From Escherichia phage vB_EcoS Sa179lw, in the sequence record NC_054637.1: a stretch of DNA of 46,833 nt. One strand, 5' to 3'. Shown one piece after another: positions 2,576 to 25,539 of the stretch. The first letter of the stretch is position 1, and the number at the start of each line of letters is the position of its first letter. The notes under the pieces are model-generated. The model saw nothing but the letters and a program-made list of their open reading frames with translations. It was not told where the DNA came from and ran no database searches. A program made the translations under genes and the position numbers.

Positions 2576-3646
2576 ATGGAAAAGATTATTTTTACCAAAG
2601 ATTTGGTGGCCAACTCCGCAGTGGTGGCTGACCAGTGGAAACATCTCACCATCGACCGTAAAGTGTTCTGCAACGCAGAAGCTGAGCTGGCGAAAACTTA
2701 CGGTGTTAACGCCACCGCACTGGTAACGAAAGATTACTGGCGCGACGTGGATAACGTCACCACCCGTGTTTTCCGCAACGAAGCTGGTCAGGACATGATG
2801 GCTGACCTGATGGGTATCGCGGCAAACATCAACATCGGTAAGACTGTGGCAATCAGCCGTATTGCTTCCGATGCTGGTAAGGTAGTCCGCACTCTGTCTG
2901 GTCAGGAGCCGGAAGATTTGGATAAAACCCGCTACGATTACACTGGCGATGTGATTCCAATCTTCAAGACTGGCTACAGCCGCGAATGGCGTGAGCTGCT
3001 GGGTATGCAGTCTGAAGGCTTCGACCCGCTGCTGGACGATCAGGCCAACGTTACCTTTAACCTGCGTTCCGACATGGCGCAATATCTGCTGACTGGCGAC
3101 CAGACTCTGAACGTGAATGGCGTTTACACTGGCTACGGCATCACCAACCACCCGAACACTGTTCAGGTTAACCTGAACGTTTCCGGTGGCCTGAATATCG
3201 ACCTGCAAACCGCAACGCCAGACGAAATCGTGAAATTCTTCAATCAGGATTTCCAGGCTATTCTGGATGCGCAGAACGTATTCGAGCAGGTTACCTTGTG
3301 GGTTTCTCCAGCAGTGCGTCGCAGCTTCATGCGCCCGTATTCTGATGCAGCTGGCTTCAAAGGCGGCACGGTTGAGCAGTACATCACTCAGTTCGGTAAT
3401 GGTCGCATTGGCAAGATTGGCACCAACTTCCTGCTGACTGGTAACCATTTCGTTGGCTACGTTCGCAACGACATGTACATCCGTCCGCGTGTTGCTCAGC
3501 CGGTTTCCACCTATGCGGCAGCTCGCGATAACCCGCACGATAACTTCAACTTCCTTGTGTGGTCAGCTTTTGGGCTTCAGGTGCGCAAGGATTTCACTGG
3601 CAAGTCCAAAGTGTTCAACGGATACGGTACGCAAACTCCGCTGTAA
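2576..3646 (+). CDS. Major capsid protein, 356 aa
   Basis: Size, position after scaffold/decoration genes, strong terminator immediately downstream. Confidence 0.7.
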   Translation: MEKIIFTKDLVANSAVVADQWKHLTIDRKVFCNAEAELAKTYGVNATALVTKDYWRDVDNVTTRVFRNEAGQDMMADLMGIAANINIGKTVAISRIASDAGKVVRTLSGQEPEDLDKTRYDYTGDVIPIFKTGYSREWRELLGMQSEGFDPLLDDQANVTFNLRSDMAQYLLTGDQTLNVNGVYTGYGITNHPNTVQVNLNVSGGLNIDLQTATPDEIVKFFNQDFQAILDAQNVFEQVTLWVSPAVRRSFMRPYSDAAGFKGGTVEQYITQFGNGRIGKIGTNFLLTGNHFVGYVRNDMYIRPRVAQPVSTYAAARDNPHDNFNFLVWSAFGLQVRKDFTGKSKVFNGYGTQTPL

Positions 3647-19750: not shown

Positions 19751-22297
19751 ATGGCTACCACACCAACTAATAAACCAATTCCGTCAGAAGACCCGCGCGA
19801 CCTCAAGTTTAACGCCGGGAAGATTGATGAGGTAGTGACATCTGATGCGCATTACTATACAGATCGCTTTGGCGTGCGCAGATTTACTATCGAAGGATTT
19901 CAGCACACCGCAGAAGAGGCTATACGCAACTATGGCTATATTACGATGTACAGCTTTGAAGATGGTGCGACACTGACGCTTCCTAATCAGGTGCTGCGCT
20001 ATGAGGCTACTGGCGAATATTATCGTTTTGATGGCGACCTACCAAAAACAGTGCCAGCGGGTTCAACTCCTGAAACTTCTGGTGGAATTGGTTTAGGTAA
20101 GTGGATTAGCGTTGGTGATGCTTCACTGAGGTCCGAATTAAATGGTCAGAACGGTATAAGGATAATTTCTGGTTCTGAAATTATTGTCGATAAATTTAGC
20201 GACGCTCTGCTTCTTTCTGGAGTGAAATCAAAGGTTGTTAGAACGCTATCGCACCATGATGGTAATCATGGTGGTGCGTCATATAAAAGAACAGGAAACA
20301 CAGGAACACCATCAACAGGTTCTGTAGAGTTATTTTATGACGCAGAAGGTAATGAGTGGTCGCTTTCAGTTGATTACATTGATTACTATATGTTTGGTGC
20401 TGAACTTAATGGTACTACCGATGATACACTATCGATAGTTGCAGCGCATACTTACGCAAACACCAATAAAATTCCTATTGTGCAGAATGGTGGTAACGCT
20501 TTCGTCACCCCAAACGACTCCTCCAGGCAGATTGCATTTAACACTGATGCCACATTTACCGGTGGGTTTAAGTTCATCTCAAACTCAATCACTGGCCGGG
20601 GTTTTGTCGTACGTTCTATCGCCGATGAGGTAACTCTCTCACAGAGTGACGTTGTTATTTCTGAATTCGTAGCAACACGGATGAAGATTCCAAGTCTGTC
20701 CGGTTACGAAAACTGTTACGCAGCTATTCAGTCTACGGAAACCGACCTAAATCGTAAACGTGACACCGGCCCGGCATTGCAACTTAAACGTCAACCGGTA
20801 GTAATTGGCAAGGATGGAACTCTTGATGCACCACTGTGGGCGACTTTCAACTCAATATCTGCGATTAAAATTCAAAGTATCCTTCTACCAACCATAACCA
20901 TTGATGGTTTCCGGTTACGGTCTGAGGGTACGTTAACCAATGCCAACCCCTTCGGCGTTCAAAGGAACAACGTTGTCATAAAAAATTTCTACTATGAGAA
21001 AGGCACGACATCGGCAACAATACCGGTTCAATCCCTACTCAGTGTAGAATTCTGCTATAACGTAACCATAGATGGCATCTCATGCGACCCGTTGAGTGTC
21101 GGTATCGTTGATTACAACTACGTTATAAACACATGGACAAGTTCTAAAATTTCCATCAGAAATATGACATCTTTTGATGGCTGGGCGCAGCTTGACGGCA
21201 ACTATTGCCGAAATGTTTCTATTAGTGATTCTGTAATCGACCGTGTCGGCTCTCACTTTAGGTGCTACGACTACACTTTCAAAAACCTCACAGCACGAAG
21301 GGGGCGCTGCATCGCTGTTTCCGGAGGAGGATTACTCCATGTGGAAAACATCAAGGTTTATGCGGAATCATCCACGGTATCCGATGAACAGTACACTGTT
21401 GTAACCATTCGAGGTGACTACGGTGCTGAGTGGGACGGCGCTGTCGTAGTTAAGAATGTTATTTTCGACTTCAGTAACTTCTACTCATCGTCTACTGGCA
21501 TAACGGCATCTATAGTGTCGGCGTTTATCGATTCCACCGTGGGTGCACACGATTTTATGCGTACAGTCGTTATGCCCAAGAGCATATCTATTAAAGATTG
21601 CACTTTCATCATAAACACCATGCCTGGAAGTTATCTTCGTGCATTAGGGGTTGGTTGTACTTCTGCAATAGTCTCTAGTGTTATTTACCCAAGTAATATA
21701 GATGTAGAAAACATAACGTGTGATAACAGTTCTGGTACAAATAAATTTAAGGTCCGCGGGGTGGAATGGAACACTTTACAGCGTTCTGAGATACGTCGAC
21801 ATGACGTGAACATCCGCGTTAAAGGTGTTGTAAATATAGACCCGGCGACCTACGGAGAGACCATACTTGATGACACTACCAGCACAAATACCATCCTTAC
21901 TACCGGAACAAACACCAGAATCTATATGACTGTTCGTGATTGCCCGTGGCAGAGCTTACGCACGGAAGGTAACTATATCCGCACAAAAGTTTATGGTGGG
22001 AGCATTACTTACTTCACAGGCACGGCAGGTACATCAAACCGTATATCTTTTTATGGAACTGAGTTCAACGGAACAAGGTTTCGCGGTGCGATAAAGGTTA
22101 CTATCCAGGACTGTATTTTCAACAATTATGTTGATTACACATCCGCATCTGTTCCCATAGGGAACGGACAGAGTGTTGATACCAACACGACTTTTATCAT
22201 TGGGACTGCTACAGAGTTCGGAGCTACCATAACTGGCACTGCTGTTACGGCCTCAACAGCAAAAACGGGATACTCGCAATCTGGTTACTATCAATAA
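19751..22297 (+). CDS. Tailspike / tail fiber (receptor-binding protein), 848 aa
   Basis: Last large structural ORF; S/T/N/G/V-rich repetitive body consistent with a beta-helix; strong terminator downstream. Confidence 0.6.
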   Translation: MATTPTNKPIPSEDPRDLKFNAGKIDEVVTSDAHYYTDRFGVRRFTIEGFQHTAEEAIRNYGYITMYSFEDGATLTLPNQVLRYEATGEYYRFDGDLPKTVPAGSTPETSGGIGLGKWISVGDASLRSELNGQNGIRIISGSEIIVDKFSDALLLSGVKSKVVRTLSHHDGNHGGASYKRTGNTGTPSTGSVELFYDAEGNEWSLSVDYIDYYMFGAELNGTTDDTLSIVAAHTYANTNKIPIVQNGGNAFVTPNDSSRQIAFNTDATFTGGFKFISNSITGRGFVVRSIADEVTLSQSDVVISEFVATRMKIPSLSGYENCYAAIQSTETDLNRKRDTGPALQLKRQPVVIGKDGTLDAPLWATFNSISAIKIQSILLPTITIDGFRLRSEGTLTNANPFGVQRNNVVIKNFYYEKGTTSATIPVQSLLSVEFCYNVTIDGISCDPLSVGIVDYNYVINTWTSSKISIRNMTSFDGWAQLDGNYCRNVSISDSVIDRVGSHFRCYDYTFKNLTARRGRCIAVSGGGLLHVENIKVYAESSTVSDEQYTVVTIRGDYGAEWDGAVVVKNVIFDFSNFYSSSTGITASIVSAFIDSTVGAHDFMRTVVMPKSISIKDCTFIINTMPGSYLRALGVGCTSAIVSSVIYPSNIDVENITCDNSSGTNKFKVRGVEWNTLQRSEIRRHDVNIRVKGVVNIDPATYGETILDDTTSTNTILTTGTNTRIYMTVRDCPWQSLRTEGNYIRTKVYGGSITYFTGTAGTSNRISFYGTEFNGTRFRGAIKVTIQDCIFNNYVDYTSASVPIGNGQSVDTNTTFIIGTATEFGATITGTAVTASTAKTGYSQSGYYQ

Positions 22298-22299
22298 AA

Positions 22300-22330
22300 C
22301 TAACCCCGCTCCGGCGGGGTTAGTTTTTAT
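22300..22330. terminator. Bidirectional terminator between tailspike and the replication operon
   Basis: Hairpin AACCCCGCTCCGGCGGGGTT followed by AGTTTTT. Confidence 0.7.
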
Positions 22331-22332
22331 CA

Positions 22333-22449
22333 TCAAAACGGAATGTCGTCATCGAAGTCCATTGGAGGCTCATTTCCTCCTTGTGGGCTTTGTTGTTTTG
22401 GTAGCTGTTGCTGTCGTTGCGGTTGTTGTCCTGATTGCTGGCGTGGTTG
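22333..22449 (-). pseudogene. SSB C-terminal tail remnant (Q-rich linker plus GNEPPMDFDDDIPF), in frame directly after the VRR-NUC stop codon
   Basis: Manual minus-strand translation QPRQQSGQQPQRQQQLPKQQSPQGGNEPPMDFDDDIPF; no start codon; upstream TAA at 22450-22452 is the VRR-NUC stop. Confidence 0.5.
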
Positions 22450-22905
22450 TTAAAAACCATCAAATATCAATGGCTCTGATGGTTTTTTATATTTTGGGTA
22501 ATTCATTGCTCTCCAGTCGTTAAATGCCATCATTGCAGCTTCCCAACCAAGGCATACACACGCGAAGGAACCTAATTCTTTTGCCGCCTTTAGGTATGCC
22601 ATTTGACCGGGCTGCCATTTTGATAAAGTATGATCCATTCTTTTCATCTCCATAACGAATGATTGCTTTCCGCTAATAATGATGTCTGACGCCCCGAAGT
22701 TTAGCGCGCCTTTTTTCTTCAGGTTTTCAACTTCATACCCTTTACGCTTTCCTTCATTTGGTACATGAATCATAACTCTTGCAAAGTCAGGGTATAGCTT
22801 CCTTATCTGATTAACAAAAGTCTCCAGTTCAGCGTCTTCTGACGGGCACTTTTTGTTTCTGTAATCTAAATTTCCATATACCTTAACGCCTTCTGGAAAA
22901 ATCAT
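22450..22905 (-). CDS. VRR-NUC domain nuclease, about 151 aa
   Basis: Motifs PNEGKRKG ... GASDIIISGKQSFVMEMKR; ATG at 22905 overlaps the helicase stop (ATGA). Confidence 0.7.
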   Translation of the reverse strand: MIFPEGVKVYGNLDYRNKKCPSEDAELETFVNQIRKLYPDFARVMIHVPNEGKRKGYEVENLKKKGALNFGASDIIISGKQSFVMEMKRMDHTLSKWQPGQMAYLKAAKELGSFACVCLGWEAAMMAFNDWRAMNYPKYKKPSEPLIFDGF

Positions 22906-24777: not shown

Positions 24778-24966
24778 CTAATATAAATCGCAATGATTTA
24801 GATCTAAAATATCATCATCTATCTCAGTAACCTGAGACTCATTGAATAATGGAATACCATCTGGACTTCTAAAGCTTGATTTTTCACCTTTTATTACTGT
24901 AAAACCAAATTCTCTCCACGCGGAAAAACTCATGAACTTTTCATGTTTTTCTTTATTTTCTTTCAT
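24778..24966 (-). CDS. Hypothetical protein, 62 aa
   Basis: ATG at 24966 preceded by TTCGAGAGGACATT; lies downstream of a terminator. Confidence 0.4.
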   Translation of the reverse strand: MKENKEKHEKFMSFSAWREFGFTVIKGEKSSFRSPDGIPLFNESQVTEIDDDILDLNHCDLY

Positions 24967-24984
24967 AATGTCCTCTCGAATAAA

Positions 24985-25012
24985 AAGGGCCACGAATGGC
25001 CCTGATTCAAAT
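24985..25012 (-). terminator. Rho-independent terminator or attenuator after the SSB-like gene
   Basis: Minus-strand hairpin GGGCCATTCGTGGCCC followed by TTTTTATT. Confidence 0.6.
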
Positions 25013-25017
25013 CTAAA

Positions 25018-25539
25018 TTAAAACGGAACGTCGTCATCAAAGTCCATCGGTGGTTCATTAGATGACGCTGATTGCTTAGGAGCAGGTGTTGCTTTTGTTT
25101 GTTGACGACTAAAAACACCAGCCACATAGTTACCAGTTTTTTGCTTATCCTCAGACTCCCAAACTCGCAGAAGAAGAATCATTGGGCGATTTGCAAGCGC
25201 ACTTGCAATAGCCAAATCAGTAGGCTCTTTTCCTGACGCCATCAGCTTACCTCCAGCATTTGCATCAATTGCTGCAAGCATAGTGATAGCATTATCCCGC
25301 TGTTTCTCTTTTGAGCTAAACACCTTCAGCTTCTGGAAGATGATTCGATTTTTATACTCACCTTCAAGGATTCGCCACTTAAGATTGAAGAATCGCTCAC
25401 CTTCCCACTGATCATCTTTACATTCCTCAACAGCAGCCAGAACACGGCTGCCATCAGGAATTACCTCAAAACCACCACCCAATTCAAATTCAGATTTAGA
25501 TTCAACAGCTTTACCGTCAGAAAGATTCCAGAAACCCAT
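25018..25539 (-). CDS. ssb: SSB-like single-stranded DNA-binding protein with E. coli-type C-terminal acidic tip, 173 aa
   Basis: C-terminus SSNEPPMDFDDDVPF; ATG at 25539 preceded by AATCGAGAGGACAC; N-terminal domain not obviously a canonical OB fold by eye. Confidence 0.6.
   Translation of the reverse strand: MGFWNLSDGKAVESKSEFELGGGFEVIPDGSRVLAAVEECKDDQWEGERFFNLKWRILEGEYKNRIIFQKLKVFSSKEKQRDNAITMLAAIDANAGGKLMASGKEPTDLAIASALANRPMILLLRVWESEDKQKTGNYVAGVFSRQQTKATPAPKQSASSNEPPMDFDDDVPF

Follow-up and report, generated by a model that had tools for sequence, protein, structure and literature searches.

What does the C-terminal tail of a bacterial SSB, a protein that binds single-stranded DNA, do directly behind the stop codon of a nuclease gene in the genome of Escherichia phage vB_EcoS Sa179lw (NC_054637.1)? 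We analyzed the whole stretch of 46,833 nucleotides (nt), referred to below as the window, and assessed whether the tail belongs to the nuclease, is a peptide in its own right, acts as RNA or is a relic. The preliminary description of the locus had placed this tail in frame immediately after the TAA of a VRR-NUC nuclease and without a start codon, which we confirmed on the minus strand over 38 sense codons. Comparison with related phages makes it likely that these 114 nt are an untranslated fragment of an ssb gene, a pseudogene left at a junction between genome modules that would also serve as a homology arm in recombination.

Homology of the tail to phage ssb genes

Searches of phage genomes with megablast recovered two kinds of relatives. 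Sf11 (Cedarrivervirus), ECO111 5-P and YX3973 carry the entire arrangement of nuclease and tail (92–95% identity), while in ASO78B, Segz_1, PHA46_2 and others the match is limited to the tail and the terminator that follows it, and that DNA closes, at the 3′ end, an annotated ssb gene of the bacterial type. We found that the 114 nt plus terminator were 89–91% identical to the ssb 3′ ends of Segz_1, ASO78B and PHA46_2 (E ~1e-47 to 1e-49), which indicates a match far above chance. The homology starts at the first codon past the nuclease stop and extends through the shared terminator, with the junction reading GGT TTT TAR / CAA CCA CGC in the remnant and GGT CAG / CAA CCA CGC in ssb. The suggestion, made from the window alone, that the tail is a relic of an ssb 3′ end is supported by this homology to intact phage genes.

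The features of the locus are as follows, all nuclease and remnant coordinates being those of the minus strand.

22450..22905, minus strand: coding sequence of the VRR-NUC-like nuclease, 151 amino acids (aa) plus TAA at 22452-22450, from the open reading frame (ORF) and its translation
22336..22449, minus strand: ssb 3′ remnant, 38 codons (114 nt) in the nuclease frame, made up of a Gln-rich linker and an acidic tip
22378..22449, minus strand: left 72 nt of the remnant (linker), with in-place evolution at an approximately neutral rate
22336..22377, minus strand: right 42 nt of the remnant (GGNEPPMDFDDDIPF), the portion that recombination has replaced
22330..22335, minus strand: tandem TGA TGA stops inherited from ssb, TGATGA likewise lying 3′ of intact ssb genes
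22296..22327, both strands: bidirectional rho-independent terminator hairpin with a 14-bp stem and a 4-nt loop, shared with ssb-bearing relatives

The nuclease is the last intact gene of an operon encoding Sak4, Gp157, DUF669, helicase and nuclease proteins, and its ORF of 151 codons (22905-22453) ends in ...PLIFDGF (...KKPSEPLIFDGF) before the TAA at 22452-22450. The 38 sense codons of the remnant (22449-22336) encode QPRQQSGQQPQRQQQLPKQQSPQGGNEPPMDFDDDIPF and end in NEPPMDFDDDIPF, the last nine codons (22336-22362) being the canonical sequence of the SSB C-terminal peptide (SSB-Ct), and the frame closes with TGA at 22335-22333, followed by a second TGA at 22332-22330. ATG, GTG and TTG are absent from the 5′ end of the remnant in the window, where the sole in-frame Met is that of MDFDDDIPF. 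The Gln/Pro-rich disordered linker and the D-D-D-I-P-F tip of an SSB are present in a stretch that has no start codon and initiation region of its own and no OB-fold (PF00436), since the DNA upstream is nuclease and only the last 38 ssb codons are there. The hairpin behind it has perfect 14-bp stem arms (22296-22309 and 22314-22327) flanked by A and T runs, so that it has the T-run of a terminator on both strands, and the homologous hairpin in ASO78B is annotated as a terminator on both strands.

Intact ssb genes of the relatives have ~122–123 additional codons, match PF00436 (E = 7.5e-38) and, in ASO78B, Segz_1, PHA46_2, ZX4 and VLCpiS13a, occupy the corresponding place ahead of this terminator and the tailspike, such that the fragment has what is expected of a pseudogene, homology to a functional gene at the same position in relatives. 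The operon of this sister architecture encodes HNH, helicase, VRR-NUC-like, exonuclease, recombinase and SSB proteins and is followed by the same hairpin and the convergent tailspike, whereas the window has a Sak4-like annealase, Gp157, DUF669, helicase and VRR-NUC instead. A simple deletion of exonuclease, recombinase and ssb was rejected as the origin of the fragment in favor of replacement of the module, given how little the helicases resemble each other between the two architectures.

Decay states behind the nuclease stop

We compared the region behind the nuclease stop across a set of viral contigs and GenBank genomes, which comprised clade 1 (n = 9, including the window), clade 2 (n = 12, Klebsiella phages) and further sub-clades. 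The nuclease of clade 2 is 64–66% identical to that of the window. Five states were found.

Clade 1 (9 genomes): 38–39 in-frame codons without a start codon, with an extra in-frame TAG in the linker of L009
Clade 2 (12 genomes): TGA-ATG (ATT in L021) plus 21–23 codons (KPSNTQKPPANEPPMDFDDDIPF), homologous to the ssb ends of Klebsiella phages (ZX4, VLCpiS13a)
Type 3 (L124, VLCpiS13b): 15 codons (QQPSNSPPMEDDIPF) in the +1 frame, no post-stop ATG, with sequence deleted internally and D changed to E in the tip
Type 4 (L122, L123, L126): a ~22-nt spacer with an 11-mer (AACCACCAAAA) in common with the clade-1 linker, the tip being lost
Type 5 (L125, ECO95 1-6-1, gmqsjt-1): terminator directly against the stop

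Frame, length and presence of the tail are all unconserved across lineages. The remnant is absent from Yersinia P400 too, but the C-terminus of the nuclease is different there. Because the terminator abuts the stop in type 5, which leaves no original spacer, the inserted ssb fragment sits directly against the stop. No exact match to an intact ssb allele with the type-3 tip (MEDDIPF) was found in the viral contigs. Private nonsynonymous and nonsense changes, insertions and deletions, frame changes and loss in sister lineages are what relaxed constraint would produce, with the exception of the tip, where the variation appears to be imported.

Two further observations concern individual remnants. 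In L009 (identical to L052), whose nuclease protein is 97% identical to that of the window, the remnant reads GGA TAG CAA at codon 8 instead of GGA CAG CAA, which puts another amber codon in frame, again with CAA behind it. The remnants of clades 1 and 2 both open at the CAG-CAA-CCA of their own ssb linker, at linker positions that are not homologous (window 22441-22452; L016-L023 around 3454-3468), and this common start could reflect microhomology-guided junctions or secondary deletion between repeats. The ATG of clade 2 was considered as the original ssb start, retained after an in-frame deletion within the gene, and no genome with a full ssb directly behind this nuclease was found.

Substitution pattern and replacement of the tip

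Pairwise differences between remnants concentrate strongly on third codon positions (14 of 19 between Sf11 and YX3973, for example). Purifying selection on the tail was considered on the basis of this bias, and dropped as an argument for translation once variants had been split into shared and private ones and compared with the synonymous divergence of neighboring sequence. In a comparison of nine remnant alleles with 17 intact ssb alleles of the same phage group, the remnants did not form one lineage, their nearest neighbors were usually intact ssb alleles, and polymorphisms were common to both, including CCA/CAA at codon 2, DDD and DDS tips and the 3-nt insert of L043 (in the intact alleles of L057 and L068). 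The third-position bias is driven by these variants shared with intact genes. Thirteen states were private to clade-1 remnants, falling on codon positions 1, 2 and 3 in 8, 1 and 4 cases and including Q-to-stop (L009), G-to-C, P-to-S, N-to-G, E-to-N and P-to-T changes, and 8 of the 10 states private to clade 2 were nonsynonymous. Changes that arose in place look neutral, and the synonymous-looking variation appears to have been imported.

Divergence along the locus is discordant. Between the window and L010/L011 the nuclease differs by 2.4–2.6% overall and by 6.6% at third positions, while the remnant differs by 6.9–11% over its first 72 nt and by 24–29% over its last 42 nt, which hold the tip. 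Divergence of 24–29% in the tip against 6.6% at nuclease third positions indicates that the tip was replaced and did not diverge in place.

Among relatives, tip alleles also travel together with the sequence downstream. YX3973 (clade 1), L017/L018/L023 (clade 2) and ZX4/L103/L109/L110 (intact ssb) have the same terminator (GGGCCGAATGGCCC) and fiber end, and their tips differ by few substitutions, L018 also being without the two DF codons. The intact ssb of VLCpiS13a has its tip allele, with a 6-nt deletion (PMDDDIPF), and the downstream sequence in common with XY3 and VLCpiS13c, and L022 matches L098/L114 in tip and downstream cassette. The discordant divergence and the joint travel of tip and cassette suggest that crossovers fall inside the remnant, as expected of a homology arm, for which breakpoints lie within the element and the flanking cassette is common to otherwise divergent genomes.

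The tailspike cassette and its boundary

The sequence on the far side of the hairpin is one further feature.

19751..22297, plus strand: convergent tailspike gene, with its receptor-binding part (20379-22303) as a mobile cassette

Only the N-terminal ~430 nt of this gene are in common with most relatives. For the receptor-binding part, identity to its counterpart in Kagunavirus ST20 is 94.6%, and this homology stops in the hairpin; on its terminator side, the cassette thus has a recurrent exchange boundary. ST20, whose host is E. coli O165:H8, belongs to a different genus and has a different upstream module, such that the match represents a cross-genus transfer of a host-range cassette with one boundary in the hairpin.

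None of the GenBank records examined annotates the tail frame, and we found no description of the remnant. In Sf11, gp12 (L001 4490-4672; a 60-aa ‘hypothetical protein’) reads the remnant in its +1 frame and continues across the hairpin into the tail gene (window 22320-22463, minus strand); it is probably a spurious gene call.

Proposed history of the fragment

We propose that a Sak4-type module (annealase, Gp157, DUF669, helicase and VRR-NUC) replaced an ssb-bearing module by an illegitimate event, the right-hand junction of which would have fallen in the ssb linker, directly against the nuclease stop, leaving the ssb tail and terminator behind. The resulting fragment is most likely untranslated, and its left part drifts neutrally. 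Tip and terminator are the sole homology on that side of the tailspike common to ssb-bearing relatives, so that exchanges of the fiber or tailspike cassette would resolve within the remnant and put tip alleles of functional ssb genes in place of the resident one. The tip would then appear to be under purifying selection because crossovers in the remnant import functional alleles. We infer that the original event ran in this direction, and that the lineage may benefit from the homology arm through easier acquisition of host-range cassettes.

Several observations weigh against this history. The only cassette boundary found for the window, that with ST20, lies in the hairpin and not in the remnant; a crossover within the window’s own remnant is suggested by the jump in divergence, and co-transfer of tip and cassette was seen in relatives only. 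All of the remnants that reach the ssb end (23/23) keep a ...D-D-[DS]-I-P-F tip, and none of the 13 private changes of clade 1 falls in the last 33 nt, which by our own estimate has a probability of ~0.014 under a uniform distribution, (84/117)^13. Recombinational refreshing explains the intact tip, and selection on a translated tip would explain it too. Two of the three remnant types are in the frame of the nuclease, and the stop of clade 1 is followed by C. Of the 12 clade-2 genomes, 11 have ATG immediately behind TGA, and 10 (9 of 11 distinct alleles) have a Q-to-K change to AAA at codon 2 of the mini-ORF.

The nuclease and its native C-terminus

Whether the nuclease ends where its stop codon stands was assessed from its family. 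The protein matched no Pfam family at E ≤ 0.01, VRR_NUC included, and corresponds to PHROG 824, to which no function is assigned there. A family profile built from 30 homologues matched the solved VRR-NUC structure PDB 4QBL over the core (E = 4.4e-5), and D74, E86 and K88, which form the D...E-x-K motif, are invariant across the 30 homologues. The VRR-NUC label is acceptable on these two grounds despite the lack of a Pfam hit. The C-terminus is conserved and ends in Phe at the position of the stop across sub-clades (LIFDGF, IQIDSF, IDIESF, VIIDNF, ITINHF, IIKEF), and because this family extension is conserved and ends in Phe there, the stop is taken as the native end of the gene.

The extension itself comprises 13–14 residues (window 22453-22491, minus strand; P0002-P0016, L016-L023) with a hydrophobic and acidic pattern before the invariable Phe, and may itself act as a protein-interaction tail. 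In ECO95 1-6-1 the nuclease has a premature TAG just upstream of this extension (KQN-stop-PSSPITISHF-stop).

The DUF669 gene and the second tail copy

A second copy of the tail lies upstream in the same operon.

25018..25539, minus strand: DUF669 SSB-like gene (PF05037, E = 1.9e-5; phrog_9002), ending in NEPPMDFDDDVPF, its last 43 nt (25017-25059) being the second tail copy

The preliminary description had reported two near-identical tail repeats and proposed them as a recombination substrate. The second copy is real, but it is less similar than claimed, with 86% identity over 43 nt (22332-22374 against 25017-25059) and exact runs of ~9 nt judged by eye on the alignment. Its proposed role was unsupported, as the copies show no concerted evolution and the recombination that is visible takes place between the remnant and the ssb genes of other phages. 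In L009 and L010, for example, the DUF669 tip is MDFDSDVPF, but the remnant tips are MDFDDDIPF and MDFDDSIPF. Gene conversion between remnant and DUF669 tips was considered on the basis of codons that agree within genomes (GAT-GAC-GAC in both copies of the window, GAC-GAC-GAC in both copies of Sf11); the agreement fails in L009, L010, L011 and L013 and was treated as chance.

Every relative encodes a DUF669 protein, which has no OB-fold, with an E. coli-like SSB tip, which reads MDFD[DS]D[VI]PF in clade 1 and, for the Klebsiella clade, VDFDDD[VI]PF. The module of the window phage thus genuinely uses a host-type SSB tip, by way of this protein. Between the DUF669 and helicase genes, L009, L010, L011, L013, L018, L021 and L023 have an extra Cys/His-rich ORF of 128–143 aa (~713-1142; ...CHIGMFD..QCE.VV.WC..); the window is without it and has an ORF of 71 aa there instead (24778-24993).

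Alternative explanations

Among the alternatives, translation of the tail on its own survives best, and we regard it as improbable. Such a product would be an SSB-tip decoy that competes with host SSB for its partners (candidate targets include Exo I, RecQ, PriA and Pol III chi, among others) or for phage proteins that read the DUF669 tip. It would arise in clade 2 by termination-reinitiation at TGA-ATG, giving 22–24 aa, and in clade 1 from the internal ATG, giving MDFDDDIPF. The post-stop ATG and AAA codons of clade 2 and the intact tips described above are consistent with such a decoy, to which can be added that no private nonsynonymous change falls in MDFDDxIPF in either clade, that the internal ATG of clade 1 has AAGGAGG 13 nt ahead of it, and that the nine-residue SSB-Ct alone binds partners in vitro (PMC10018359, PMC7913777). 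However, a Shine-Dalgarno sequence is absent before the clade-2 ATG, and L021 has ATT at that site; by a rough estimate, neutral drift would produce about this much change (one in 3 nt over 12 genomes). The AAGGAGG of clade 1 is formed by the QGG codons of every intact ssb and its 13-nt spacing is poor; type 3 has no post-stop ATG and a changed tip (MEDDIPF), type 4 has lost the tip and type 5 has no remnant; and imported alleles account for the conservation of the tip. Affinities between SSB-Ct peptides and their partners are micromolar, given which high expression of a decoy would be needed.

The literature searched contained no report of a phage-encoded free SSB-Ct peptide, and nothing relevant was found on remnants in Cedarrivervirus. 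It is quite improbable that the tip is expressed as a small decoy in the specific forms of a coupled mini-protein of 22–24 aa in the Klebsiella clade and, in the clade of the window, of a bare SSB-Ct or a rare readthrough isoform of the nuclease. If it were, the decoy would titrate the SSB-interactor pockets of the host or tune the interactions of the phage’s DUF669 tip, and would constitute the first case of a phage encoding a competitive inhibitor of the SSB interactome and a new phage means of interfering with host genome maintenance.

Low-level readthrough of the nuclease stop, which we consider very unlikely, would give a minor nuclease isoform carrying the SSB linker and tip and docking on SSB-partner sites or on tip-recognizing proteins. 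It would fit the position of the remnant in the nuclease frame in clades 1 and 2. As the nucleotide behind the stop, clade 1 has C, clade 2 has A and type 3 has either, and C as the fourth base is the weakest termination context in E. coli; TGA, the leakiest stop codon, is used in clade 2. Against this, the stop switches among TAA (2/9) and TAG (7/9) in clade 1, TGA (11/12) and TAA (1/12) in clade 2 and TGA (2/2) in type 3, whereas programmed readthrough should keep a conserved leaky stop with its context. Nor is the extension open and in frame everywhere, as L009 has a second in-frame TAG and the type-3 remnants of L124 and VLCpiS13b are in the +1 frame.

Readthrough would also bury the conserved ...[DEN]-x-F end of the nuclease family, and the private changes in the linker are neutral-like. 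The preliminary description had proposed looking in related genomes for a fused VRR-NUC–SSB-tail ORF, and none was found: with the hypothetical readthrough product as query, 5.8 billion database proteins held no nuclease–SSB-tail fusion, that is, no variant with a sense codon in place of the stop, and the nuclease matches (P0001-P0051) were 119–152 aa long and covered at most 79% of the query. The window has no tRNA genes and so encodes no phage suppressor tRNA. Taken together, the missing fusion, the TAG of L009, the +1 frame of type 3 and the variable identity of the stop leave the idea of a readthrough nuclease with an SSB tail unsupported.

A role at the RNA level, with remnant and terminator acting as a 3′-untranslated element or as a 3′-derived small RNA, is more remote still. 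We considered the small RNA STnc370 on the basis of a match to this enterobacterial Rfam model at 22293-22363 (minus strand), which scored 30.6 bits against a gathering score of 54, and the folding z-score of 22290-22470 was −4.1. Both stem mainly from the generic terminator hairpin, and the identification was rejected as sub-threshold and terminator-caused. The consensus of the STnc370 model is unlike the ssb end, the CAA-rich linker has little structure, sister lineages lack the remnant or have a shorter one, and a literature search on STnc370 returned nothing bearing on ssb.

Finally, the suggestion that a sequencing or assembly error hides a real nuclease–SSB-tail fusion, which beyond the in-frame arrangement has nothing in its favor, can be dismissed almost entirely, since a stop stands at the homologous codon in 23 independently sequenced genomes from isolates or metagenomes, in three different forms and in all genomes with the arrangement, with the native Phe C-terminus of the nuclease at that position.

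Significance and comparison with known systems

In annotation, the stretch should be marked as an ssb remnant and not as a gene. The locus also illustrates a pitfall of method, in that a dead fragment can acquire a strong synonymous signature through variation imported from live copies, such that codon-position bias alone would mislead toward translation. Its value lies in this caution on inferring selection from codon-position bias and in an unusually complete decay series. An SSB tip, as a short and almost universal coding motif, and a shared terminator may act together as a portable left boundary for the exchange of tailspike and fiber cassettes, and the exchange would cross both recombination modules and hosts (Escherichia/Shigella/Salmonella and Klebsiella), which matters for host-range prediction and engineering in these phages, a group of candidates for therapy.

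Programmed readthrough extensions exist, as in the A1 protein of Qbeta, and the locus resembles them in that an open frame right after the stop encodes a recognizable functional motif. It is unlike them in that stop, frame and openness vary among relatives of the window and no extended protein is known. The DUF669 SSB-like proteins of Sak4-type modules are a second point of comparison, as the same phage encodes one with an SSB-Ct-like tip; unlike the remnant, that tip is carried on a full-length conserved protein, and its evolution is separate from that of the remnant.

The SSB-Ct, nine residues long, is well established, as are its many partners (PMC10018359, PMC7913777). The remnant shares with the C-terminal region of bacterial SSB (PF00436) an identical tip, MDFDDDIPF (PMC10018359), and its DNA is ~90% identical to the last 38 codons of ssb, but it lacks an OB-fold, a start codon and a ribosome-binding site and is a fragment that lies behind the stop of another gene.

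Mosaicism has been reported for the phage group to which the window belongs (PMC11769527), and remnants at module junctions are already a known kind of feature. The fragment is like other such remnants in being a truncated piece at an illegitimate junction that would be reused as homology for the exchange of host-range cassettes. Lambdoid and P22-like phages undergo modular exchange and have remnants or conserved boundary sequences at their module junctions. The present case differs from these mosaic-junction remnants in that five decay states follow one and the same nuclease gene, and in that a host-like protein supplies its most conserved short coding motif as the anchor; the fragment would keep its intact look because this SSB motif can pair with the ssb genes of many phages.

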